From: a virus
Taxonomy: Duplodnaviria; Caudoviricetes
DNA: 64,000 bases
Virus record (IMG/VR): IMGVR_UViG_3300002220_000189
Coordinates: 63,206-127,205 of that record
Direction: 5' to 3' (one strand)
Shown here: piece after piece, positions 51,214-64,000 of the stretch
Position numbering within the stretch: the first letter of the stretch is position 1
Layout: every line of letters starts with the position of its first letter
Position numbers and translations under genes: made by a program
The notes under the pieces: model-generated
Told to the model about the DNA's origin: nothing
Database searches by the model: none
The model's input: the letters and a program-made list of their open reading frames with translations, nothing else

Positions 51214-54200
51214 TCATATTCCATATTTTTCTTCTATCTGTTTTATTATATACTCTGGTGTGATACTTAATGTGCAGATAAAGTTTTTATTTTTTGGGCA
51301 CCAGAACCAATTTCCTCTATCAAACACTATATTATGATCATTAAAACAACCATGACATACATCAGTATTTATTATTCTTAAACAATCTTGCATTTCATGA
51401 TATGGTAAAGTCAATCCTGAAATCATTACTGTAGGAACTCCTAATGCCCATGCCAGCCATGTAGGACCTGAACTAATACCTATAAATAATTCAGAATGTG
51501 CTATATTAGTAATTGTTTTTTCAAGTGGTTTACCCGTTCTGTCAATAATATTCCTTAATTTTGTTCCATCTCTATTGATAACCATTACTTTATAACCCTT
51601 TTTATTATAATGATTTACAATCTGTTGCCATCCTTGAGAATAATTATAATATTTTGCCTGTAATGTAGAATGTTCAGCAATTGTTATATACTTTTCTTTT
51701 ATCGGTCTATCACCACTTACCACTAATTTAGGTTTTACTTCATGGTATTCAAGACCTAATATGTCACTTGCTGCTTGTTGTAATGGTATCAATCTCCAAT
51801 TATTTTTATTTCTATCATAGTTATTATCAGTAACACCCACAGAATATATTGCATGAATATAATCTAAACTCGTTCCGGGATTTATAAAAGTTAAATTAGG
51901 GTAACTATCTTTATCAAACATACGATTATGATGTGTTGATAAATATACCTTACAATTATGTTTTTTCTGGAATATATCAGCATAAGGCATCCATGCAACA
52001 GTATCACCTAACTGTTCACTATCCAATTCAATTATGACATTTTTATTTCTCAAATCAAAATTATAATCTGATATAATCTGATTATTAGAATGTCGTGTAA
52101 CTTGCACATTCCAATTTGTATAATATTGCCTACCATGAGCTACCCATGATGTACCATCTACTTTAATATTATCTTCATATACAAGAAATTTTGTATCATT
52201 ATCAATAAATTTTACATTGAATGTATCACTACTATATCCTGATATTTCACATCTTATTCCTCTATGAAATAAATGATTTATAGAAATATCTTCTTTTTTA
52301 TATTCACTTATTTGAGGTTCTTTTTTTGCTGACAAAATATTGAATATAATATGTCTATAGTAACAATTAAACGAATATCCTGAAAAATATTGTGATATCA
52401 AATTAGAATATATATTGTGCATCATACTAACACTAGTTTCTACATTTGGGAATTTTGATGCCAATCCTTCAAAATAATATACAACAATTTCTTTATATTC
52501 TTTATCTTTATAAAATCCTATTACTTTTTTTAGAAAATCAATATCTTTATCTGCATATATTAATATATAATCAAAATCATCATTAAATTCATTTATTCTC
52601 AAATCATAATCAAAATACAATTTTTTGAGTTCCGTAAAATCTCTATCTTCATTAATTGTAAATAAACCTATCTTGGTATATGGATCAGTATTCAACTCAC
52701 TCAATAAAAATGTGTTTGCTTCCTCATAAATCTTTTCATAATAATCTAATACGGTACCTTTTGGAATATCCTTTCTTTCAATACATATTTGATTTATATT
52801 CTTATGTTGTTTCCATTCTTCATCCGATAATGCTCTATGTGATATACCAGATAATCTTTTTCTGTAATTATACAAATTTCTCTTTATATTCAAATGATTA
52901 CCGTGTTCAGGTAGGATTGAAAAATGTAAACAGTCATTATTACATCCGCCATTATATTCATTTACAAAGAAATCAAGACCATCAATATTTTTATAACATC
53001 TTAAATGGCCCCAAATATGAAGGCTCTTCAATCCCCATAATTCTTCATGTGTATATGTTCTCCCTTCAAGAAAAGCGCCATAATTACCCTGAAATGACAT
53101 ACAACTCGGATTTAATATTCCACCATTAAATGTTTCATTATATGACACATTATCACATGACATTGATACAATATTATCATCTTTATATTCATTCAAAAGT
53201 CTATTATAAACTTCTAAAGCTCTTAAATTTACAACATCATCAGCATCAACTGTTATGATATAATCACATTCTGGAGAAATAAATCTTTGTGGTTGCCAGA
53301 ACATTTCCTTTTTGAAATTCTGTTTCACATAAATCATTTTAGAATATTTCTTACAGTAATACATCAACTTTTCTTTCGTATTATCCGTACTATCGTCATC
53401 TGTAACAAACCATACCCAATTTGTATAAGTCTGATTTATTACACTTTCTATAGTTTCGTCCATTACATCTGACACATTATAGAAAGTTGTGTTTATACCG
53501 AATTTGAACTTTATACTTTTATCAAACATAGATAATAACATATTAGAATCTTTATCAATATTACCAAATAACCAATGTATATTAGGATCGTCTCCAAAAT
53601 TTGTTCTTATAGTTTCAATATCAGAACATAAACAAGGAATATCATAACTTAGCGCTTCTTTCAAACTTATAGGATTGAGTTCTGCTTTAGACGGTAAAAT
53701 ATGAACATCAGCAATATTCAAGAAACTATCAACATCATCTCTTTCACCCCATAGAATACAATTCAGAGGTTTTTTAGGAAGTATTTTAGACCAATAATCT
53801 TTAAAATTATCTGCCATATTTCCTATAAAATGAAATTGAAAATTTTTATCCTCTAACATTTCAGCAATTTTGAAGGTATATCCCTGATTTTTATTCTCTG
53901 TAAACAATCCAACCTGAACTACATGAATTTTCTTCGGATCTAACTTTAATTTTTTTAAGTAAAAATCCTTATCCTGTTTCTTTTTAGGAGGTGCATATTC
54001 ATATAATTCCTTGTTTATATCAATAGCTCTATACGTTTTGAAATGATGTTTATTACAAAATACAAATTTGTCTGGTATAAATTGCTTATCTTTCGGATCA
54101 TATGTTGATGTATGTGACGTTTCATGAATAAAGTAATTTCTGAAACAACTATATATTTCCTTTTGTATATTTTCTGATAATGCCCAAAATAAGGTAGGTT

Positions 54201-56379
54201 CTTCCTGTAAATGTAGAATATCAGGCTTAAATTGATTAATTTCTTCAAGTAGTTTCTTATTATCTTCATATACTGCAATAAAATTCTTACCTAAAATTCT
54301 TATCATTTCATTTCTCTGAACAACATATGCGTCTCCAGAATACGAATTTTCTATAACAGCAACATTCAATCCTTTTTGAACATCATCTTTTATTTTCTCT
54401 AACACATATTTTGGCATACCACCAGTAGAAACATGAGGTAATAAATACATTACCTTATTAAGATTAATAAATTTTTTATTCAATAAATAAATAACATATA
54501 ATTTTACTTTTGTTGAACCACCACTTTTATAATATACATAAAAATCATCTGTTTTAAATTTCTTTATATAATCATCAATATTTTCACTAAATTCTAAATG
54601 TAATTCCATAACAACTTTTTTTACTCTATTCTTTATTATTTCAATATTTTCATCTTCAAATAAAAATACCTCAGCTCCTTCACAATCAATCTTTACCAAA
54701 TCAATAATTTCATCATTATATTCATTACATATATCTTCAAATGATATTGTAGTAGTAGTTACAGTATTTCCTTCTATTTCATTATATATTTTTTCTTTGA
54801 ATATTGTTTGTGCGCCGGAGTCTGCTGTTGTTGAAATATAAAAATCAATCTCATCACCTGAAGTAGAAAATAATGCTTTATTGATTATCTTCATTTTATC
54901 AAGATTATTTTTATTCAATATCATATTAAATTCATTTAATCTATTATCCGGTTCAATACAAATAAGATTTTCTACATTATTATGAAATGCCAGTAATGCA
55001 AAAAATCCAATATTAGAGCCTATATCAATACAATTTTTTACATTTTCAAATAATTTGGGTTTATAATACATTTCATCAATAAAAATTTCTTGATATATAT
55101 ACCAAGGAACATCTCTTATTTTATCTAAATCGTCTGATGTTAAATGTTTCAAATAACTACTTATTGGATATAACGTCTGAACATCAAATATCTGTTCATC
55201 ATATTCATTAGCAATACTAATTTTTATCTTAATCTTCTTAAAAAATAATGCTAATACATATGCAAAAAATATCCCAGATGGTCCTCCTAAGTGTATAATA
55301 TTATCACATATTTGAACATCACCATCTTTCTCTGATATACCATAAAGTTCTAAACGAATTTCACCACCCTTAAAAACTTCTAATGTAACTTTATGATTTT
55401 CAGTTTTATCATGTTTAAACAAATTTACTTTATTTCCAATCATTTCATTTCCTTTTAATATATAAGTCTTTACTAACTCATACTGCTCATCTGTAACTCT
55501 ACCATGTAAAAATTTTATATTATCTATATCTTGCTTTGCAGGAATTTTACAAAAATCATCCCAAAAATATCCTTTATCTTTGGGATGTGTATAACAATAA
55601 ATAAATTTCATAAAATCTTCTTTTGAAGTCATTTTATCATAAACATTTATCCAAGGCAAATTAATAGATATTTGCTTTAAATTATCATTTTTTCCATATT
55701 TCCATAATATAACATTTAATATTGTTTCATCATTGAATGCTGCATAATCTTTCCAGTTATTGATTATTCTCTTGTCATAACATAATTCTTCCCATTCCTT
55801 CAAAATATCTTTACAATTATTATTGAATAAGATTATATTCGATTGTTTGTAATTTTTCCTTATCTCAAAAGGTAATCCTAATAACTTAAATAATGGCGCC
55901 TCTAAACATCTTGTAATATCAAATACTTTATCATCTATCCAAGGATTGCCCTTACCATTATATATCATAAATTCATGAATATTTTCTCCTAATAATGGAT
56001 AATCGGTAAGTCTTGTCTTAAAATTAAATACATCATCACTTCTTTTAGTAGCAAGACAATCACCATCAACAAAACAATATGTATGATCCCCATTTTTAAG
56101 AACTTCATTACATATTTTAGATTTTATAAACAGCATATTAGCCCTTACTGTTTCTGTATTACCAAGGATTTTGCGGTCACTATCGGTATTTCTTTCAAAT
56201 TGTTTTATATTGAAGTTATATCTGATTGGAATTACATTCTTGAATTTTGATTTATAGGTAAAATTGATAGTATAATAATATACCATTTTGTTAGAAAACA
56301 TTATTAGTGTTTCAAACAACTTTTCCATTACTGGTAAATAATTTTTATCACTATGCACAACATAACAATCCATACACAT
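51214..56379 (-). CDS. Multidomain glycosylation enzyme: GT-A-like + FkbM methyltransferase + GT4 + GT2 + autotransporter O-heptosyltransferase-like
   Basis: FVDGD...FNDETILN; IDIGSNIG...KIDCEGAE; STGGMP...KNQ...ELNPISLKEA; VTDDDSTD...DADD; DSEQLGDTVAWMPY...IGISSG..WLAWA...CHGC...C...C. Confidence 0.82.
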   Translation of the reverse strand: MCMDCYVVHSDKNYLPVMEKLFETLIMFSNKMVYYYTINFTYKSKFKNVIPIRYNFNIKQFERNTDSDRKILGNTETVRANMLFIKSKICNEVLKNGDHTYCFVDGDCLATKRSDDVFNFKTRLTDYPLLGENIHEFMIYNGKGNPWIDDKVFDITRCLEAPLFKLLGLPFEIRKNYKQSNIILFNNNCKDILKEWEELCYDKRIINNWKDYAAFNDETILNVILWKYGKNDNLKQISINLPWINVYDKMTSKEDFMKFIYCYTHPKDKGYFWDDFCKIPAKQDIDNIKFLHGRVTDEQYELVKTYILKGNEMIGNKVNLFKHDKTENHKVTLEVFKGGEIRLELYGISEKDGDVQICDNIIHLGGPSGIFFAYVLALFFKKIKIKISIANEYDEQIFDVQTLYPISSYLKHLTSDDLDKIRDVPWYIYQEIFIDEMYYKPKLFENVKNCIDIGSNIGFFALLAFHNNVENLICIEPDNRLNEFNMILNKNNLDKMKIINKALFSTSGDEIDFYISTTADSGAQTIFKEKIYNEIEGNTVTTTTISFEDICNEYNDEIIDLVKIDCEGAEVFLFEDENIEIIKNRVKKVVMELHLEFSENIDDYIKKFKTDDFYVYYKSGGSTKVKLYVIYLLNKKFINLNKVMYLLPHVSTGGMPKYVLEKIKDDVQKGLNVAVIENSYSGDAYVVQRNEMIRILGKNFIAVYEDNKKLLEEINQFKPDILHLQEEPTLFWALSENIQKEIYSCFRNYFIHETSHTSTYDPKDKQFIPDKFVFCNKHHFKTYRAIDINKELYEYAPPKKKQDKDFYLKKLKLDPKKIHVVQVGLFTENKNQGYTFKIAEMLEDKNFQFHFIGNMADNFKDYWSKILPKKPLNCILWGERDDVDSFLNIADVHILPSKAELNPISLKEALSYDIPCLCSDIETIRTNFGDDPNIHWLFGNIDKDSNMLLSMFDKSIKFKFGINTTFYNVSDVMDETIESVINQTYTNWVWFVTDDDSTDNTKEKLMYYCKKYSKMIYVKQNFKKEMFWQPQRFISPECDYIITVDADDVVNLRALEVYNRLLNEYKDDNIVSMSCDNVSYNETFNGGILNPSCMSFQGNYGAFLEGRTYTHEELWGLKSLHIWGHLRCYKNIDGLDFFVNEYNGGCNNDCLHFSILPEHGNHLNIKRNLYNYRKRLSGISHRALSDEEWKQHKNINQICIERKDIPKGTVLDYYEKIYEEANTFLLSELNTDPYTKIGLFTINEDRDFTELKKLYFDYDLRINEFNDDFDYILIYADKDIDFLKKVIGFYKDKEYKEIVVYYFEGLASKFPNVETSVSMMHNIYSNLISQYFSGYSFNCYYRHIIFNILSAKKEPQISEYKKEDISINHLFHRGIRCEISGYSSDTFNVKFIDNDTKFLVYEDNIKVDGTSWVAHGRQYYTNWNVQVTRHSNNQIISDYNFDLRNKNVIIELDSEQLGDTVAWMPYADIFQKKHNCKVYLSTHHNRMFDKDSYPNLTFINPGTSLDYIHAIYSVGVTDNNYDRNKNNWRLIPLQQAASDILGLEYHEVKPKLVVSGDRPIKEKYITIAEHSTLQAKYYNYSQGWQQIVNHYNKKGYKVMVINRDGTKLRNIIDRTGKPLEKTITNIAHSELFIGISSGPTWLAWALGVPTVMISGLTLPYHEMQDCLRIINTDVCHGCFNDHNIVFDRGNWFWCPKNKNFICTLSITPEYIIKQIEEKYGI

Positions 56380-56418: not shown

Positions 56419-57675
56419 TTAAATCCGTAATTTTAGATTTTCGGAAATACCATTGAGTATTCTGAGTATTTCATTTGAACCACTAATATTTCGTATTTTT
56501 GTATTTATTATATTATACATTTCATAATTCAATAGAAATTGCTCTTTATTCAACAATAACATATAATATATCATATCTTTCCATACTCTTGGGATATTCA
56601 TAGAATTTTCAAACTGTCTTACTTCAGTATTTGTTTCCATATAATTTTTATCTTTATCGAATTTTTTAAAACTACTATTTGTTAGGGTTAGCCATCGTAA
56701 TGAAAATTCGATATTGTTATAATCTTTAATTTTATCAATAAATTTATCAAAACTTCTGATATCATCATCAATCAAATTATCCCATCCTAGTATTATAGAC
56801 AAATATACATTACATCCAGAATCTAATAAATATTTTAGTGTTTTTAAATATTCTTCTAATGTAATACCCTTTTTCATATACATTAACATTCTATCTGATA
56901 AAAATTCACCGCCAATTCTAAAACATAATCTTTGAGGGGTTTTAATTTCGTGAAAAAAAGATTTTAATTCTGTAATTTTATTACCACTTGCCCTCCAATA
57001 AAATGTGTGGTATATATTAGACTTTTCATTTATTATAGGAAGTAACAATTTGATATCTTCGGGAAGCATATCGGGTGAAGTATAATATGCAGTAAGTTTA
57101 TTATCTATATTTGGTATATTAGAATATGTATATACTGTATCACCTAAAAAAATGGGTGAAGAACAAAATATACATTTTCCCCAAAAACATGGCTTATTAA
57201 ACGATACTGAAAATAAAATATCAGAATTTGAAATATTATTTGGTATTTTTAACCCCCATTCTCTTTCATCATAGTTCTTAAAAATACTTCTAAGATTATC
57301 TATAACAATTTTAAAATTTTTTCTTTGTGGTAATAATAATGGATTCACAAATGCGTGAAATAAATATGCTGCTGGACCGCCAACAATAAAATCAACATCA
57401 GGTAATTCTAATGATGCTAAATATACATATACAGGCTCCATTTCAAAAATACATGAAACATACACCTTATCTGTGTTATATCTCTTAATGCTTTCTACTA
57501 ATATATTTTTAGGTATTGTTGGGTCCCACTTATCCATTACATATTTTTTATTGGCATTAACTGGAATCTGTATTAAATTTTCACATAAATTATATACTGT
57601 AGAAAATCCGTTGCTCAAATATATAGTGTCTTTATCGAGAGAATTATTATATCCTTCTACAAATAATTCTTTCAT
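56419..57675 (-). CDS. Radical SAM protein, cobalamin-binding-like architecture
   Basis: FIVGGP upstream of CFWGKCIFC; GGEFLSDRML..MKKG. Confidence 0.75.
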   Translation of the reverse strand: MKELFVEGYNNSLDKDTIYLSNGFSTVYNLCENLIQIPVNANKKYVMDKWDPTIPKNILVESIKRYNTDKVYVSCIFEMEPVYVYLASLELPDVDFIVGGPAAYLFHAFVNPLLLPQRKNFKIVIDNLRSIFKNYDEREWGLKIPNNISNSDILFSVSFNKPCFWGKCIFCSSPIFLGDTVYTYSNIPNIDNKLTAYYTSPDMLPEDIKLLLPIINEKSNIYHTFYWRASGNKITELKSFFHEIKTPQRLCFRIGGEFLSDRMLMYMKKGITLEEYLKTLKYLLDSGCNVYLSIILGWDNLIDDDIRSFDKFIDKIKDYNNIEFSLRWLTLTNSSFKKFDKDKNYMETNTEVRQFENSMNIPRVWKDMIYYMLLLNKEQFLLNYEMYNIINTKIRNISGSNEILRILNGISENLKLRI

Positions 57676-57676
57676 A

Positions 57677-58636
57677 TTATCCCCCTAAAATCAAATTAAT
57701 AAATTCATTTTTGAACGCATTATAATCAAATTTCAAATTAACGAATTTAGATATTTGTTCAGAAAGATTAGTATAATCTGGATTTTCTTTTAATAATTCT
57801 TCAATATTAATCAAAAAATCATCTACTTTATTACAACCAAAATAAAGACCTTCGGCCCAATCTATCCATGATGTATCAAATGATGTAGAATCTCTATCAT
57901 TAACAACCAATGGTATACAACCACAAAAAATAGCTTGTAATAATGACCAATTAAAGGGCTCCCATCCATTATGTGGTAAAACATAATATTTATATTCGTT
58001 AAATATTGATGAAACCATATTTAAAGGCACCTTATTCTTATATAATATATATTTATTGCTAAGAACTAACTTTCTGTATTTATCATCAACTTGTATAGGA
58101 AACCCCCCATAACAATCAATATAGAATTTATTCTTTTCAATAAATTCTTCTGAAAATTTATGTGGGGCTAAAGAACCAAGATAAAGTAATTCTTTTTTTC
58201 TCATATTCCAAGGTATCATTATTTTATATATTGAGGGATCAGTTGGTATATAAAATATTCTTATATTATCTGATGAAAACTTGAAATTATAATTGATAAT
58301 TATAATTAAATCAAAATATTTATAAATTATATCATTTATTTGACCACCATGAAAAATAAGTATCAATTTTGTGCTTGGTTTTACCGCTTTATATTCAATG
58401 GCAGAAATAATCAAATTATCAAAAGAATCATTGATTATAATCATTTCGGGTGCTATATCTTCTATTTTATTGAATAATTCAGTAACATTATATTGTTTAT
58501 TAATTTCTACTTTATCAATTTCATCACATTCGGCCATCCAATCAGAAAAAATATTACCTATATAACCTACTGAACAATCTAAATCATAATTAAGATATAC
58601 AATCTTCCTTTTTTTCATCTTTTTTATCATCCTCAT
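57677..58636 (-). CDS. Glycosyltransferase (GT4/GT-B-like)
   Basis: LLYLGSL.PHK...YYVLP...EPFNWSLLQAIFCGCIPLV. Confidence 0.7.
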   Translation of the reverse strand: MRMIKKMKKRKIVYLNYDLDCSVGYIGNIFSDWMAECDEIDKVEINKQYNVTELFNKIEDIAPEMIIINDSFDNLIISAIEYKAVKPSTKLILIFHGGQINDIIYKYFDLIIIINYNFKFSSDNIRIFYIPTDPSIYKIMIPWNMRKKELLYLGSLAPHKFSEEFIEKNKFYIDCYGGFPIQVDDKYRKLVLSNKYILYKNKVPLNMVSSIFNEYKYYVLPHNGWEPFNWSLLQAIFCGCIPLVVNDRDSTSFDTSWIDWAEGLYFGCNKVDDFLINIEELLKENPDYTNLSEQISKFVNLKFDYNAFKNEFINLILGG

Positions 58637-59117
58637 CTAAAAATTTTAGATAATATTTACTGATTTCAAATATTTGTGAATGGTGATTTTCTATGTGTTT
58701 CATTCTCTCAATTAAAACTAATATATTGGTTACCAATTCTATTGATGTTAAATGAAGTTTGAAGTATCTCTCAATAAGAACAATATCTTGTTTAATATCA
58801 TCATCTTGATATACAAGATTATTCCAATTATATAACAATAAGATATATGAATTTACAAACATTGAAAGTTTATCATCTATTGGTAAATTAAGAAAACATT
58901 TACCCAATAGTTTGATCGTATTTTTTATTCTATGTATTAATTTACCTTCGTCATCTGGATATATAATATCTAAACTTTCAATATTTTTTATATAATTATC
59001 ACTAACGTAATTGGCAACATCAACAAAATCTATAAATTCAGGTCCGCAAAATTCTATTAAGTTATAAGGTGGACTAGATATAACAACATCTCTATTTTTT
59101 ATAATTTCTTCTATCAT
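58590..59117 (-). CDS. Hypothetical protein in the radical SAM cluster
   Basis: ORF overlapping both neighbours. Confidence 0.55.
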   Translation of the reverse strand: MIEEIIKNRDVVISSPPYNLIEFCGPEFIDFVDVANYVSDNYIKNIESLDIIYPDDEGKLIHRIKNTIKLLGKCFLNLPIDDKLSMFVNSYILLLYNWNNLVYQDDDIKQDIVLIERYFKLHLTSIELVTNILVLIERMKHIENHHSQIFEISKYYLKFLDEDDKKDEKKEDCIS

Positions 59118-60379
59118 AATAAACCCTCTCTTTCATAAAAAACTATTGATCTATTTTTATTTACATCAAGTTGTGGCATTAAAAATTTTAATACATCATT
59201 TTTATGCAAAAATCTTAAAATGGTGAATACTTTAACATGATACAATCTACACACCGAAGGTATAGGTAAAAACATATTACCTGTTGTTTCATATTGAGAA
59301 CCAAGACATCCAAAAGAGCAAAAATGTTTTATTAAGCATTTTTCACAATATGGTATATTATGTATTTTCATTGCATTCATCGCTAAAAATAATTCTACAT
59401 TCTTTTCCTTTATTCCTGTCAATGTTTTACCATCGGTTTCATATTCATATAATAAGAATTTATCGTATTTAAGTCGATGACATGGATATGTTTTCAAGTC
59501 TATTACACCAATCTGATGTACAGATTGTGCGCTGCATGTTAAACCCGACATATGTTCTATAAAAATTTTAGAGATAGTGTCGACATCCCTAATTAATTTT
59601 TCAGCATATTTTTCACCATTTCCACTATTATTTAATCCATATTCCATTAAAAACTTTAAGAATTTAATATAATGTATTAAATGTTCTTTCTTCCAACCTG
59701 CATTACGTACTTCTAAATATGAAAGATTTGTAATATCAATATTATATTGTAAAAGCATCTCCATAAACCAAAGATGATTCTGTATAGAACATTCTATACC
59801 ATTAAAGTATATCATTGGATGAAGTCCATAATGTAAATATTTATGTGATTTAAACAGTTCATGATAAAAATCATCTGTATACATATTACCATTTCTCAAT
59901 GGCCTGTTATTATTATCCATATATTTACCATCTATTGATGCACTTAATTTAATATCTACATTATTCTTTTTACCTAACTCTATTAAATCAAAAACTTTTT
60001 GTTTTCTTTTTTCATCAAATATAAAAGACACTGCAGTTGGAATAGAAATGAAGAAATTTTTTTGCACTTTATTTTCTATTATATATTGTATCACATTATA
60101 AGAATAATCCTTCATCAATAATTCCCCACCAAATAAACACAATGAAGGACTATACGAATTTTCATTCAACCAATTTATAATTATTTCAACATTCTTCAAT
60201 ATACTACTTTCACTATAAATATCTTTAGTGTACTTTTTCCCAACATTATTGATATAGCAATATGTACACTTATGATCACACGAATAATCAAAATTTAATT
60301 GTAATAAATTATGATTTCTATTAGAATTTTCCGGAGTCCATTTTCTACGATATCTTTTCAAAACATTTTCTATTATCAT
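59114..60379 (-). CDS. Radical SAM enzyme with SPASM domain
   Basis: CDHKCTYC, FGGE, SIDG; C...PCHR...CEKCLIKHFCSFGC...C. Confidence 0.9.
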   Translation of the reverse strand: MIIENVLKRYRRKWTPENSNRNHNLLQLNFDYSCDHKCTYCYINNVGKKYTKDIYSESSILKNVEIIINWLNENSYSPSLCLFGGELLMKDYSYNVIQYIIENKVQKNFFISIPTAVSFIFDEKRKQKVFDLIELGKKNNVDIKLSASIDGKYMDNNNRPLRNGNMYTDDFYHELFKSHKYLHYGLHPMIYFNGIECSIQNHLWFMEMLLQYNIDITNLSYLEVRNAGWKKEHLIHYIKFLKFLMEYGLNNSGNGEKYAEKLIRDVDTISKIFIEHMSGLTCSAQSVHQIGVIDLKTYPCHRLKYDKFLLYEYETDGKTLTGIKEKNVELFLAMNAMKIHNIPYCEKCLIKHFCSFGCLGSQYETTGNMFLPIPSVCRLYHVKVFTILRFLHKNDVLKFLMPQLDVNKNRSIVFYEREGLL

Positions 60380-60383
60380 GATA

Positions 60384-61577
60384 TTATATTCCCTTTATCT
60401 TCTCAAAATATCCATTACCTAAAAGTAATATAATAGATACAGGAATTAAAAATTCTGAGGTTGTCAACACCAAAAACTCTGATATGCAATACATAACTGC
60501 TTTAATAAAAATTGCTAATAATAATGCATTGTTTATATCTTTATATTCTGATAATATTTGCCCATTATCAGCTAATTCTTTTATTAGACATAAATTAGTA
60601 TTTAAATATAACATATTGAAATGATGATAACTAAAGCCCTTATATTTATATAGTTCCATACTAATGTGGGTTTCATTATCTTTAGGCTCTGTAAATAATC
60701 TATGACATAAATAAATGCTATTATTATCTATAGCTACTGATGACTTACCTGAAGAACAAGTATACCTAAAAATATTATCTATATGATATAAATCATTCAA
60801 TATATTCTTAAAACTACGTTTATATGGAATACCCAATTTTGAATTATTGAATATATCAGCAAAAGCAGATAATAATTCACCATCTTCTTTAGTATACTTA
60901 TATGATAAATCAAATGTAGGATGTGGGATTATATCTATTATAATATTTTTCCCTATATCTTTATATCTCTTACTTAACATATCAAAAAAACATAAATATT
61001 CTTGCATACTATTAGAAGTTTCCACAAAATATTTTATATTATTAATGTTAAAAGTTACTTTATTTCTCAATTTTATATTTTTAATTGATAAATCTATATT
61101 TTCTAAAAAATTATATAGAATTTCTAATCCCTTCAAAACTTTCTGATGTGTTCCTCTTCCACGATTTAAGTCAGTATTATATTCATCACCATCTATAGAA
61201 AATTGGATATCCAAATTTACACGACCTTTGGCTAAATCAACTTTATTCAAAGTTTCTATAAATTGTATTATTTTTTCTACTTTGGTTAAATTTGTTGAAA
61301 ATAATATAGTATCTAATTTAGGAAATTTTTTGAGAAGAATGTTTAAATAATTTGAAAGGTAATCTAAATTATAAGAAGGTTCTGCACCCCATAAAGATAA
61401 CGATGTAAATTCTAAATTTAATTCACTCAGTCTATCAATAAAATCACCAGATTTAATAAAATCTTCTATTGATTTGCAAATAAAATCTTTGTTATAATAG
61501 CAATAATTACAATTTAAATTACATTTTTCTGAAAAAAACAGGCCAACATTTAAAGTATCCATAAACATCCTATACAA
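60384..61577 (-). CDS. Radical SAM enzyme with a truncated (twitch-like) auxiliary domain
   Basis: CNLNCNYC, WGAEP, STN, QFSIDG; CSSG...LCHR. Confidence 0.88.
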   Translation of the reverse strand: MYRMFMDTLNVGLFFSEKCNLNCNYCYYNKDFICKSIEDFIKSGDFIDRLSELNLEFTSLSLWGAEPSYNLDYLSNYLNILLKKFPKLDTILFSTNLTKVEKIIQFIETLNKVDLAKGRVNLDIQFSIDGDEYNTDLNRGRGTHQKVLKGLEILYNFLENIDLSIKNIKLRNKVTFNINNIKYFVETSNSMQEYLCFFDMLSKRYKDIGKNIIIDIIPHPTFDLSYKYTKEDGELLSAFADIFNNSKLGIPYKRSFKNILNDLYHIDNIFRYTCSSGKSSVAIDNNSIYLCHRLFTEPKDNETHISMELYKYKGFSYHHFNMLYLNTNLCLIKELADNGQILSEYKDINNALLLAIFIKAVMYCISEFLVLTTSEFLIPVSIILLLGNGYFEKIKGI

Positions 61578-62646
61578 TCATAAAATCACTTATTTTTTTC
61601 TTACCAGTAATAATCGCTGTTAAATCTCCATTGGAAATATAAGTGATATTTTTGGCAAAAACATTTTTATGGATGGTTAAATCAGATCCCTTTATTTCCA
61701 CCATATCTGTTTCTTCAAAACCCACTAAAATACTTTCAACACATGAAGTTGTATAATCATAAGTAACATTATAAACATTTAATAACGCAAGATTGTTATT
61801 TATATCCTCATCGGTGGCAGATTTCCCGGTAATTATATTTTTAAATCTTACTTCATATTGTAGACCAATCGAATTTTCTTCTTTTAATAAAATTAAAGAA
61901 TCTATAAACTTTAATATTTTATCTTTAGATTCTTTTTTAATATTGAATGAATACTTTCCTACTCCTAAAAAATTTTCTACTATGTGTTCAGAATTATATA
62001 AATCTCTAATATAAAATCGTGTCATTGATCTATATGAATCTAAATATTTTGAAAATAAATTATATGCATTTTCACCACATCGTATCAATATATCCTCACC
62101 TATAAGATTCATAGAACTTCTAAAAAAATCAATATGATAATTACACTGATCTAGAATCTCAGTCTTTATAATATATAATCTTTCTAATTGTTTAAATGGA
62201 TAAATATATTCTCTTAGAAACACATTCCCATATATATTTTTTTCCAGAACTGATGTACAAACACCATCCTCATTTGCTTGTTCTATAAGTTCATCAAAAG
62301 CTGTTTTACCTTCTATATAGTAAAGTAATTTATTATTATAACATTTATTACTAATGAAACGATCATCTATTATAATAACATCAAATAGAGAATACTCCTC
62401 TTGTACTAAATATCTTTTTAAAACAGAGAAGGATGTAATAGATTCCTCGATCTCAGTAGTAATAACACCTATAATAAAATCATATTTTTGTAATAATTTT
62501 AATGCTATAAAATCTTTATTATACCCTTGTATATTTTTATAATCCAATATATTATATAGCATAACTGCTATTTTACAATTTATTGGTAAAGATTTATATA
62601 TATTATCTAACTCATCTATTGAATATATTATTTTAGTTTTTTTCAT
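61570..62646 (-). CDS. Hypothetical protein in the radical SAM cluster
   Basis: 358-aa ORF with an AGGAG RBS; no motif recognised. Confidence 0.6.
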   Translation of the reverse strand: MKKTKIIYSIDELDNIYKSLPINCKIAVMLYNILDYKNIQGYNKDFIALKLLQKYDFIIGVITTEIEESITSFSVLKRYLVQEEYSLFDVIIIDDRFISNKCYNNKLLYYIEGKTAFDELIEQANEDGVCTSVLEKNIYGNVFLREYIYPFKQLERLYIIKTEILDQCNYHIDFFRSSMNLIGEDILIRCGENAYNLFSKYLDSYRSMTRFYIRDLYNSEHIVENFLGVGKYSFNIKKESKDKILKFIDSLILLKEENSIGLQYEVRFKNIITGKSATDEDINNNLALLNVYNVTYDYTTSCVESILVGFEETDMVEIKGSDLTIHKNVFAKNITYISNGDLTAIITGKKKISDFMIV

Positions 62647-62660
62647 TATATAATCTCCTT

Positions 62661-62846
62661 CTATGCGACATAGCTACCATTATGTGTTGATGAATAATTA
62701 TAATTTGAACCATAATATGTTCCATAATGTGTTTGACAATATGTAATATTATTATTTAGCCAATCAGACGCAGTTCTAACTTCATTTATATCACTATACT
62801 CTACATTTGTATATTGTGTTATACTTTGAGCCCATGAATATCCCAT
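62661..62846 (-). CDS. Small Tyr/His/Ser-rich protein, candidate radical SAM substrate
   Basis: WAQSITQYT...INEVRTASD...CQTHYGTYYGSNYNYSSTH. Confidence 0.7.
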   Translation of the reverse strand: MGYSWAQSITQYTNVEYSDINEVRTASDWLNNNITYCQTHYGTYYGSNYNYSSTHNGSYVA

Positions 62847-62868
62847 AATTTAATCAAACTCCTATTAA

Positions 62869-63198
62869 CTAACCATCTCCACCACTATATGAACAATAAC
62901 CATACCACGCTGTTGACATATGTGTAGATCTGTAAGAGGAATAATATATATAATGTGTAGAACATACAGTTACACACAGATTTCTTCTATCATACGCCTC
63001 ATCATACGCTGTTCTAAATTGTGTTAAAATTGTACTGTTAACCGATGTACTGTATTGTGTCGGTAATGTATAACTACCTGCACTTAAATCAGTTCTAGAT
63101 CTTAAATCATTAATATTTGAAGATATCTCAGGATATACATCTGCCTTTACAGATGCAGTATATTGTGTGATAGATTTAGTCCATGTTGTATATGCCAT
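62869..63198 (-). CDS. Small Tyr/His/Ser/Cys-rich protein, paralogue of 62661..62846, candidate radical SAM substrate
   Basis: WTKSITQYT...INDLR...FRTAYD...CSTHYIYYSSYRSTHMSTAWYGYC. Confidence 0.7.
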   Translation of the reverse strand: MAYTTWTKSITQYTASVKADVYPEISSNINDLRSRTDLSAGSYTLPTQYSTSVNSTILTQFRTAYDEAYDRRNLCVTVCSTHYIYYSSYRSTHMSTAWYGYCSYSGGDG

Positions 63199-63224
63199 AC
63201 CACTTATTTTCCCCTCTCATCAAC

Positions 63225-63238
63225 TATTTATATTTATA
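63225..63238 (-). promoter_or_regulatory. Two overlapping late promoters TATAAATA heading the radical SAM cluster
   Basis: tatttata at 63225-63232 and 63231-63238. Confidence 0.65.
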
Positions 63239-63257: not shown

Positions 63258-64000
63258 TTATTTTATTTTTATCCAATGTCTATCATTTACTTCAATATCA
63301 TTCCAGAATTTTTTATATTCTTTTTTGATATATGTACCAATAATTCTTTCTGGATAATGTATAACATCTACTCTCACCATTTCTGTAAGTTCTCCGTCAA
63401 CCGTACAAGTCAATGGTGTACCTGTTTCATATATATTATCAACATATGCTAAAACATATCCAGCAACAGAAATGGGAATTTGTTTTTTATGCCCTTTGTT
63501 ACCCACACCAAAACCATATGTATCTGTTGCTATGCCTAATATTCCCTTTTCACAATATTCTCTTGATTTTCTTACCATACCATTATCATAAATATATGCT
63601 TTACCATATTCAATATCCAGCATATCATTATCAGTTTCAAAATAATCTGCTATATCATTATAAACGGCATTATATACTTTACCAGAACTTAATCTACCAT
63701 GAGTATTTGGTGTTTGTTCAGGAGCATTTTGACTTGAATGCCACATAATAACAAGATTTTGATCGGCACCATTTTTAAAATAAAATTGTGAATTATCATC
63801 TACACCATCAGAAGCTGTTGTTGATGCTGTAAATGTTGATGCACCAGCTAAAACTGCTGATGTGCCAGAACTTCCTGATGTGCCAGAACTTCCTGATGTT
63901 CCTGAACTGCCTGATTCACCCGATGTTCCTGAACTGCCCGATGTTCCTGAACTGCCCGATGTTCCTGAACTGCCTGATGTGCCAGAACTTCCAGAACTTC
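63258..64000 (-). CDS. C-terminal part of a fibre-like protein with G-(S/T)-S repeats and an intramolecular chaperone/auto-cleavage (peptidase G2-like) domain; starts beyond the window
   Basis: Frame stays open upstream of 63746 to the window end; VYNAVYNDIADYF...GILGIATDTYG...PISVAGYV. Confidence 0.75.
   Translation of the reverse strand, partial: SSGSSGTSGSSGTSGSSGTSGSSGTSGESGSSGTSGSSGTSGSSGTSAVLAGASTFTASTTASDGVDDNSQFYFKNGADQNLVIMWHSSQNAPEQTPNTHGRLSSGKVYNAVYNDIADYFETDNDMLDIEYGKAYIYDNGMVRKSREYCEKGILGIATDTYGFGVGNKGHKKQIPISVAGYVLAYVDNIYETGTPLTCTVDGELTEMVRVDVIHYPERIIGTYIKKEYKKFWNDIEVNDRHWIKIK
63858..64000 (-). repeat. Collagen-like Gly-X-Ser tandem repeat (GSSGTS)n
   Basis: 9/18-bp periodic sequence translating to SSGSSGTSGSSGTSGSSGTSGSSGTSGESG... 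Confidence 0.9.

Follow-up and report, generated by a model that had tools for sequence, protein, structure and literature searches.

Two small head-and-tail proteins of an uncultured tailed phage, probable substrates of a co-encoded pair of radical SAM enzymes

Introduction

At the end of a partial genome of an uncultured tailed phage (Duplodnaviria; Caudoviricetes), two small proteins, A and B, are encoded close to two radical S-adenosylmethionine enzymes (rSAM1 and rSAM2), which raises the question of whether the small proteins are the substrates of these enzymes and, if so, whether the product is a released peptide or a modified protein. The genome is IMG/VR virus record IMGVR_UViG_3300002220_000189 (127 kb, CheckV completeness ~60%). 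The stretch analysed here, called the window, is the terminal 64 kb of that record (positions 63,206 to 127,205), with a GC content of ~27% and nearly all genes on the minus strand. A first-pass annotation had read A and B as a conserved leader joined to a variable core, as in substrates of peptide-modifying enzymes. Here we present the family to which A and B belong, its architecture, its conserved gene set and its conservation pattern, as observed directly in the sequences. Gene neighbourhood and sequence form make it probable that A and B are substrates of the co-encoded enzyme pair. The features of the two small proteins are as follows (coordinates of the window).

62869..63198, minus strand: small protein A, 109 aa, the long form, with two head modules and a tail
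63079..63198, minus strand: A residues 1-40, first copy of the head module (M-A-Y-T-T-W..ITQYTASV..NINDLR); B 1-28 aligns here, and a helix is predicted at 21-35 by AlphaFold2 (AF2)
62974..63078, minus strand: A residues 41-75, second copy of the head module (PTQYSTSV..FRTAYD..), ending at the near-invariant Cys75; B 10-55 aligns here
62872..62973, minus strand: A residues 76-109, tail rich in Ser, Thr, Tyr and His (VTVC STHY ... SGGDG), AF2 predicted local distance difference test (pLDDT) <50
62901..62904, minus strand: two polymorphic bases in the A tail (Tyr99Asn and Gly100Ser), from the comparison with sister contigs
62661..62846, minus strand: small protein B, 61 aa, the short form, with one head module and a tail
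62736..62846, minus strand: B residues 1-37, head module up to the junction Cys37, from family alignments
62664..62735, minus strand: B residues 38-61, tail (QTHY GTYY GSNY NYS STHN GSYV A) with lag-4 His/Tyr periodicity

Architecture of the small proteins

The translations of both open reading frames are exactly those given in the first-pass annotation, and a Shine-Dalgarno-like sequence (GAGGGG or AGGAG) lies ~12 nt 5' of each ATG. The shared motifs listed there are likewise present: a W-x-x-SITQYT start (TWTKSITQYT in A, SWAQSITQYT in B), IN(D/E)xR and RTAxD (NINDLR and RTAYD in A, DINEVR and RTASD in B), and CxTHY followed by a second STH (CSTHY...STHM in A, CQTHY...STHN in B). The leader of A had been described as duplicated, with ITQYTASV and PTQYSTSV both inside A. 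This internal duplication is real, because B matches both halves of the head of A (BLASTP; B 1-28 against A 1-37, E 2e-4; B 10-55 against A 47-93, E 3e-4). A and B are real paralogues, in which a head module of ~37 aa, composed of a strand and a helix, occurs twice in A and once in B. The core had been proposed to start at CxTHY; its start is indeed Cys-led, but A carries two Cys-led units, CVTV and then CSTH, and the junction by homology is Cys75, four residues before the proposed start (Cys37 in B).

The AF2 model of A (34 sequences) has helices at residues 21-35 and 55-89, with a pLDDT of 78-87 over residues 21-70 and below 50 in the tail. At E<=0.001, this model had no fold match in BFVD or PDB. 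No match to A, B or the helper protein of the same gene set was found in Pfam, PHROGs or NCBIfam, and neither a signal peptide nor a peptidoglycan-binding domain was detected in A and B.

Family size and distribution

While a word-indexed search with A alone returned only A itself, a HMMER scan of 1.8 billion representatives gave four true relatives (E 4e-6 to 6e-4), and a profile made from these four gave 20 relatives. A profile of rSAM2 fetched 45 viral loci and 15 loci from metagenome-assembled genomes (MAGs), which were then searched for small proteins. The family now comprises 97 distinct sequences, of which the 85 with a defined head/tail junction were analysed (loci are numbered L, proteins P). 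The collection of homologues proposed in the first-pass annotation yielded relatives with conserved heads and variable tails. B matches the short forms of L015, L011, L013 and L007 at E-values of 3e-15 to 5e-6, and a protein identical to B is present on five contigs from other samples. Several of the MAG contigs are probably binned phage DNA, since they either coincide exactly with viral contigs of IMG/VR or encode phage families. Among 50,697 GenBank phage records no match was found by megablast of the 8-kb region or by tblastn of rSAM2 and of A. The family is previously undescribed, and all of its relatives are metagenomic, none being from cultured phages. Two sets of candidates were rejected as relatives: P0002, a low-complexity false match in the HMMER search, and L002-L005, in which the similarity was confined to the radical SAM cluster motif.

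In 34 long forms M1 and W6 are invariant, and E24 too, while R62, D66 and the junction Cys are conserved in at least 90%. The junction consensus is D-x-N-Y-C-x-[T/S]-H-[N/Y]-x-[T/S]-[Y/H/V]. The head of long forms measures 70-97 aa and that of short forms 30-46 aa; tail length ranges from 20 to 316 aa, with ~450 aa in the L039 protein.

The head module also occurs outside the cassette. Large secreted enzymes (beta-helix/heparinase, reprolysin-like peptidase and GH44; P0025-P0027, P0029 and P0030) carry two or three copies of it in tandem at their termini; there it has the consensus ..TDPTL..G.t.IKA.HI.ELRTAID..R...GL.. and lacks a tail; Pfam gave no match over the head repeats of these proteins. 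In L031, L074 and P0024 the module directly follows Laminin_G_3 lectin domains and is itself followed by a tail. In the Atlas, the nearest neighbours of the A head are three clusters, all of them viral, of proteins with 66-84 aa (score 0.92-0.94), and the Atlas structure search placed the head near a phage cluster in which 23% of the members carry PF27846 (template modelling score 0.71; a lead only). Judged from the model and from these occurrences, the head is a foldable general module, which is atypical for a disposable leader.

Composition and evolution of the tails

Family tails consist of 13% Ser, 12% Thr, 11% Asp, 11% Asn, 11% Tyr, 7% His and only 1.2% Cys, and the earlier description of a Cys-rich tail was not borne out (three Cys in A, one in B). 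The autocorrelation of Ser/Thr over the family is +0.28 at lags 4, 8 and 12 and ~-0.3 at lags 2, 6 and 10, compared with -0.01 in shuffles. Family-wide enrichment was found for aromatic residues at i and i+4 (z=15), for [ST]H (z=14.6) and for H-x-[ST] (z=11.1), and the repeated unit approximates x-[Ser/Thr]-[His/Tyr/Val/Asn]-[Asn/Tyr/Asp]. The conserved elements are a Ser/Thr at every fourth residue and the junction C-x-[ST]-H; the aromatic position is often occupied by Val, Asn or Asp. The ~4-residue spacing of aromatics that had been noticed in both proteins therefore has to be qualified: it reaches significance for B taken by itself (lag-4 His/Tyr autocorrelation 0.65, with P=0.0006 in comparison with shuffles) and for the family, but not for the A tail by itself (P 0.1-0.46). 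N-x-S/T sequons (z=10.4) were dropped as a conserved feature, being a consequence of the repeat unit and of no independent weight.

The proposed combination of a conserved N-terminal module with a variable tail was confirmed in diverged pairs of loci, in which identity is 72-95% in the head, 55-76% in rSAM2, an enzyme of the SPASM type, and 28-50% in the tail. The individual values for head, rSAM2 and tail are 95%, 76% and 50% in L070/L068, 82%, 71% and 29% in L012/L028, and 72%, 55% and 28% in L030/L032. Heads are conserved at least as strongly as the enzymes, and tails evolve faster. P0004 and P0007 have 88 of 89 N-terminal residues in common and tails of 39 and 128 aa, respectively, a difference in length that is due to repeat expansion. 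Between the window and the sister contigs L077-L079, which come from the same phage in other samples, the sole non-repeat differences over ~10 kb are two bases in the A tail (62901 and 62904 in the window, L077:8945 and 8949, L078:6639 and 6643), which change Tyr99-Gly100 to Asn-Ser. L077 shows N at precisely both of these bases, and the translation of L080 has X at the two codons. This polymorphism agrees with hypervariability of the tail, as a single case.

Unusual tail ends were seen in a few members. The tails encoded at L018:5555-6112 and L041:284-1075 end in SD[IR]RLKK[DN]I[VM]YI, which we take to resemble the start of S74-type intramolecular chaperone domains. P0028 (313 aa) is a short form in which a Hint domain (PF05203, 2.2e-6), with CFPAGTKVLM at its start, comes after the tail; this domain could activate or transfer the C-terminus of the tail.

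Conserved gene set and gene order

The genes downstream of B, all on the minus strand, follow in the order listed here.

61570..62646, minus strand: 358-aa protein, lineage-specific, without a family match, between the small proteins and rSAM1
60384..61577, minus strand: rSAM1, 397 aa, radical SAM (Pfam Radical_SAM 5e-9), with 27-30% identical orthologues in all cassettes compared
59114..60379, minus strand: rSAM2, 421 aa, radical SAM/SPASM (PapB model 1.4e-18), 7 auxiliary Cys
58590..59117, minus strand: helper, 175 aa, all-helical, following an rSAM gene in 53 loci
57677..58636, minus strand: GT-B (GT1/GT4-like) glycosyltransferase, a cassette member in 25 loci
56419..57675, minus strand: B12-type radical SAM-like enzyme, accessory, with weak family matches; other cassettes are without one
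51214..56379, minus strand: 1721-aa multi-domain protein with GT4/GT1, FkbM methyltransferase, GT2 and GT9-like domains, from domain searches

BLASTP among five unrelated phages revealed six shared genes, namely the short form, the long form, rSAM1, rSAM2, the helper and the glycosyltransferase. The first five are each 20-37% identical across these phages (rSAM1 27-30%, rSAM2 34-37%, the ~165-aa helper 22-32%), and the GT-B enzyme is 32-37% identical. Out of 56 distinct loci derived from rSAM2, 36 carry the pair of small proteins, three carry one and 17 carry none; among the latter, several are truncated or have broken genes. Short and long forms are nearly always found as a pair. The gap between small protein and nearest rSAM gene has a median of 14.5 nt (54 loci). 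An unbiased test was provided by contigs that had been retrieved by similarity to the small protein and not to the enzyme: the rSAM pair adjoins in five of the five that are long enough to judge. None of the three outcomes that the first-pass annotation had named as speaking against its reading (homologues uniformly conserved, folding as ordinary domains and occurring without rSAM neighbours) was observed.

Adjacency is kept while gene order varies. The small proteins follow the enzymes in L017 and L020-L022, and in L018, L019 and L027 they lie between two rSAM-helper pairs; in these loci a separate helper paralogue stands behind each rSAM gene, an arrangement that suggests physical pairing of helper and rSAM. 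The cassette has no conserved protease or exporter gene. The 358-aa protein, the B12-type enzyme and the 1721-aa protein are specific to the phage lineage of the window; for the 358-aa protein no relative was found in any other cassette or in viral contigs, and its Atlas matches are below 0.9.

In the most divergent rSAM2 clades, unrelated small proteins are encoded ahead of the enzymes (L055:5051-5599 and L059:5434-5652). The L055 protein has a Cys/Phe-rich tail, and the L059 protein, of 72 aa, contains His, Tyr, Asn and Cys.

Enzymes and helper

rSAM2 has the motif CX3CX2C at residues 34-41 (C34, C38 and C41) together with C282, C300, C345, C348, C354, C358 and C377, all of them invariant in five orthologues. 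These residues conform to the SPASM pattern C..C..CX2CX5CX3C..C, with a score of 23.6 against a cut-off of 27 bits for TIGR04085. The best family matches of rSAM2 are PapB (1.4e-18), nif11-type, HxsB (9.5e-11), QhpD and SCIFF, all far below cut-off; for the ranthipeptide and sactipeptide maturases the values are 67.2 of 340 bits (PapB) and 34.2 of 425 bits (SCIFF). The best match in the PDB is CteB (5wgg, E 2.7e-4). In rSAM1, CX3CX2C occupies residues 19-26, just three other Cys are conserved and CX2CX5CX3C is missing, which points to a single auxiliary cluster of the twitch-like kind. An N-terminal recognition element for peptides that are made by the ribosome and modified after translation (RiPP recognition element, RRE) does not fit into rSAM1 or rSAM2, because CX3CX2C starts at residue 19 and 34, respectively.

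The AF2 model of the helper (pLDDT 90) consists of six helices without strands and is not a winged-helix RRE. Structure searches with it returned no more than unspecific matches to helical bundles (Foldseek E>0.3; for VIA, Z<=9.1, which is under the level that has meaning for such bundles). The glycosyltransferase orthologue of L017 scores above the Pfam cut-off (33.1 against 26.4 bits). The B12-type radical SAM-like enzyme of the window is probably part of glycan tailoring; in L013 a B12-type radical SAM enzyme is fused to GT2 and GT1-like domains with sugar-nucleotide genes nearby, and L007 has a GT9 gene nearby.

At L044:6389-8206 (also in L045, L047 and L048) the rSAM2 orthologue is 605 aa long and has a mini-intein-like insert (CFPAGTMIR...VLVHN) inside CX3CX2C. 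The rSAM genes of L040, L043, L050, L053, L058 and L075 are in several pieces under translation table 11, for which another genetic code, frameshifts or assembly errors could account.

Position in the fibre module

Upstream of A, the window ends within a fibre gene.

63225..63238, minus strand: pair of overlapping TATAAATA motifs that fit the T4-type late-promoter consensus, at 27-40 nt upstream of A (a match to the consensus only)
63258..64000, minus strand: 3' portion of a fibre gene with collagen-like (GSSGTS)n sequence (collagen match), which runs off the contig end
63258..63746, minus strand: last 162 aa of the fibre protein, a Peptidase_G2-type self-cleaving intramolecular chaperone domain (profile match to phi29 gp12 chains)

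The window contains 46 TATAAATA sites, compared with 31.8 +/- 4.9 expected. The 162-aa chaperone domain shares 58% identity with the C-terminus of the protein encoded immediately before the small proteins in L015, and it ends the gene immediately upstream of the small proteins in 29 loci (proteins of 300-1136 aa); the cassette therefore immediately follows a gene for a fibre or spike of the self-cleaving-chaperone type. The domain profile matches phi29 gp12 (6qz9, E 2.3e-4; 3gqh, E 4.9e-4). Peptidase_G2 (PF11962) was matched by four of 15 orthologues (best 6.5e-8), the copy in the window having no direct Pfam match. Fibre chaperones and adhesins are usually encoded right after the fibre gene (T4 gp38, P2/Mu Tfa). 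The complete fibre gene, of 376 aa, is present in L078 (5155-6285). Beyond the end of the window, at L078:1841-6285, four paralogous collagen-like (GSSGTS)n fibre genes stand in tandem before A. In the fourth, a ..DDNSQ..WHS.. stretch leads into the chaperone domain, and of the three upstream genes the two that could be followed far enough run into this stretch as well.

Comparison with known systems

The closest characterised analogue is the anti-phage system HXS, characterised in 2026, in which HxsB and HxsC are radical SAM enzymes and HxsD binds HxsC (PMC13128918). Its substrate HxsA has five His-x-Ser repeats, undergoes N-terminal processing and becomes 8 Da heavier in an SHRSS motif; matured HxsA blocks phage DNA entry from the periplasm, and 99.7% of HXS systems are found in Pseudomonadota (PMC13128918). 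Both systems combine two adjacent rSAM enzymes (one of them SPASM), a small partner and a substrate that has repeats of the His-x-Ser/Thr type and an N-terminal part required for its maturation, and the product of HXS is a modified protein, not a small peptide, as would be that of the cassette. In contrast to HXS, the cassette is phage-encoded in a fibre module, has two paired substrates with a different head module, often includes a glycosyltransferase, and has a helper that is not recognisably HxsD; its tails are non-basic, of period four and rich in Tyr, Thr and Asn, and come without a peptidoglycan-binding domain. Compared with the HXS models (TIGR03976-03979, NF038309), rSAM2 scored 41.1 of 370 bits for HxsB (TIGR03978) and rSAM1 22.1 of 267.9 bits for HxsC (TIGR03977), and NCBIfam gave no match of A, B or the helper to the HxsA-type effector and HxsD models. 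By analogy, the cassette can be called HXS-like, yet no member of HXS. A Saccharibacteria MAG contig (L076:1784-8702) carries HxsB, a TPR-like protein and an HxsA3-like protein together with rSAM1, rSAM2 and helper of the cassette type. There, and in no other locus, a true HxsB (499.8 bits) is present; it lies 2 kb upstream of the protein that precedes the rSAM pair, and this protein has an HxsA3-like N-terminus (27 bits, cut-off 65 bits) and a Cys/Ser/Asp/Tyr/His tail that includes CSTH. L076 may be a cellular hybrid of HXS and the phage cassette.

Peptide maturases resemble the cassette in part. PapB of the freyrasin system and CteB of the SCIFF system (5WGG) share with rSAM2 the combination of CX3CX2C and a full 7-Cys SPASM domain, whereas A and B have only 1-3 Cys, with a single conserved Cys at the junction, and the cassette has no RRE. 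Triceptide (three-residue cyclophane) synthases such as HaaB, HtkB and YhhB act on His/Tyr motifs (PMC11499958). The tails of A and B contain many His/Tyr-x-x units, and weak matches to the YhhB model were obtained (18-19 bits, cut-off 445 bits), but the family period is four and not three. Cyclophane formation, suggested in the first-pass annotation, could take place in A and B. As a reaction of the whole family it is excluded, since many relatives have Val, Asn or Asp at the aromatic position, which is not conserved over the family. Features of RiPP precursors that were found are the head/tail pattern of conservation and an adjacent modifying enzyme; an RRE was not.

The CXXX-repeat rSAM target system (TIGR04114-04119; PF27846) has tails with period-4 repeats and maturation by rSAM/SPASM enzymes, and is common in phages. 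Its periodic residue is Cys, whereas in the family of A and B it is Ser/Thr followed by His/Tyr, and no match of the window enzymes to TIGR04115 and TIGR04119 was found at E<=0.01. In Methanococcus voltae, the SPASM enzyme CrpC installs cross-links on CrpA, a protein-sized substrate encoded next to it (PMC13692751). Unlike A and B, CrpA is Cys-rich with thioether links, CrpC has a predicted RRE, and the system is archaeal and cellular. Fibre-tip adhesins and chaperones such as T4-type gp38 share with A and B the position after a fibre gene and the combination of an attachment-type conserved head with a hypervariable distal part; the likeness to phi29 gp12 lies in the terminal domain of the upstream fibre. 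No similarity to gp38 in sequence or fold was found. We know of no dedicated modifying enzymes for any fibre adhesin.

Proposed role and alternative explanations

That the enzymes act on A and B, by which chemistry, and where the product is located, we infer from the observations above. The head would dock the protein to rSAM1, rSAM2 and the helper, and the enzymes would modify the junction C-x-[ST]-H and/or the repeated units. Candidate reactions are a link from the junction Cys to a nearby Thr or His by the PapB-like rSAM2 and, by rSAM1, a modification of the repeat units one after another. In cassettes with a glycosyltransferase, such as that of the window, this enzyme would add sugar to the periodic Ser/Thr. 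If the head is retained, the result would be a pair of modified proteins and not a short free peptide, and this pair would most likely cooperate with the tail fibre, whose apparatus is encoded just upstream, where it could serve, for instance, as a variable adhesin or tip element. Compared with a free peptide, a modified protein that is probably associated with the fibre is the likelier product because the head folds and occurs on secreted and lectin proteins, because tails reach at least 316 aa, and because protease, exporter and RRE are lacking. The first-pass reading as leader and core thus stands as regards the conserved head, the variable tail and the rSAM neighbours. It does not stand as regards the nature of the leader, which folds and is found on large secreted and lectin proteins, with tails of 316 to ~450 aa, no conserved protease or exporter and no room for an N-terminal RRE. 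We consider it about as likely as not that A and B are rSAM substrates and, in addition, yield a modified protein that acts together with the fibre apparatus. A more specific picture is tentative and somewhat less likely than its negation, namely an enzymatically hardened, sugar-coated fibre tip made of a docked short and long pair, the specificity of which would be changed by repeat turnover; such a structure is undescribed for viruses.

Several observations weigh against a modified fibre protein. The link between enzymes and substrates is drawn from synteny only; B, with 61 aa, is as small as a classical peptide precursor; no RRE or other known leader-binding domain was recognised in rSAM1, rSAM2 or the helper; and 17 of the 56 rSAM2 loci lack a family member, some having unrelated Cys/Phe-rich or HxsA3-like proteins instead. 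The chaperone domain of phi29 gp12 is removed on maturation. Since gp12-type domains are cleaved off, the C-terminal domain of the upstream fibre was dropped as a docking site.

The small size of B also fits a classical two-peptide RiPP, in which the heads would be leaders removed by a host or other protease and the cross-linked tails would be released at lysis as antibacterial or signalling peptides. Thuricin CD is a precedent, being a two-peptide sactibiotic with two rSAM enzymes; the cassette has two substrates and two rSAMs as well, the conservation pattern is that of leader and core, the best matches of rSAM2 are peptide maturases (PapB, nif11-type, QhpD, SCIFF), and phage lysis would make an exporter unnecessary. 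The missing protease, exporter and RRE, the tails of 100-450 aa in many members, the occurrence of the head module on large secreted proteins and in fusion with lectin domains, and the invariable setting in the fibre module make this unlikely. Somewhat less likely still is a phage-made, HXS-like envelope effector, serving superinfection exclusion or interference with an HXS-type defence of the host. The parts correspond (a pair of rSAMs, a small helper and, as substrate, a His-x-Ser/Thr repeat protein processed in its N-terminal part), the tails show enrichment of H-x-[ST] (z=11.1), and L076 unites a true HxsB, an HxsA3-like protein and cassette enzymes. Every Hxs model, however, scored far under its cut-off, A and B have no detected signal peptide or peptidoglycan-binding domain and their tails are non-basic, and HXS is a system of Pseudomonadota (99.7%) whereas the cassette is found in uncultured phages of ~27% GC. 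Exclusion genes are usually early, and the cassette has a late-type promoter motif and fibre genes as neighbours.

Its position right after the fibre gene and the clustering of glycan genes nearby would also suit A and B as unmodified accessory proteins of the fibre (chaperones or adhesins), with the rSAMs acting elsewhere, for example on the collagen-like fibre or on a glycan. We regard this as improbable: small proteins and rSAMs remain neighbours despite rearranged gene order, many loci are without collagen-like fibres, and periodic tails of low complexity that are predicted to be disordered are hard to explain unless they are modified.

Biological implications

If the enzymes act on the tails, the cassette would represent a widespread, unstudied virus-encoded form of radical SAM protein maturation that is tied to the host-recognition module, with a new substrate motif of Ser/Thr-His/Tyr at period four. 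The family, so far visible only in metagenomes (with no relative among the GenBank phage records searched), supplies ~85 natural substrate variants with matched enzyme pairs for enzymology. Because the cassette resembles the HXS anti-phage system, both sides of the conflict between phage and host may use similar machinery.

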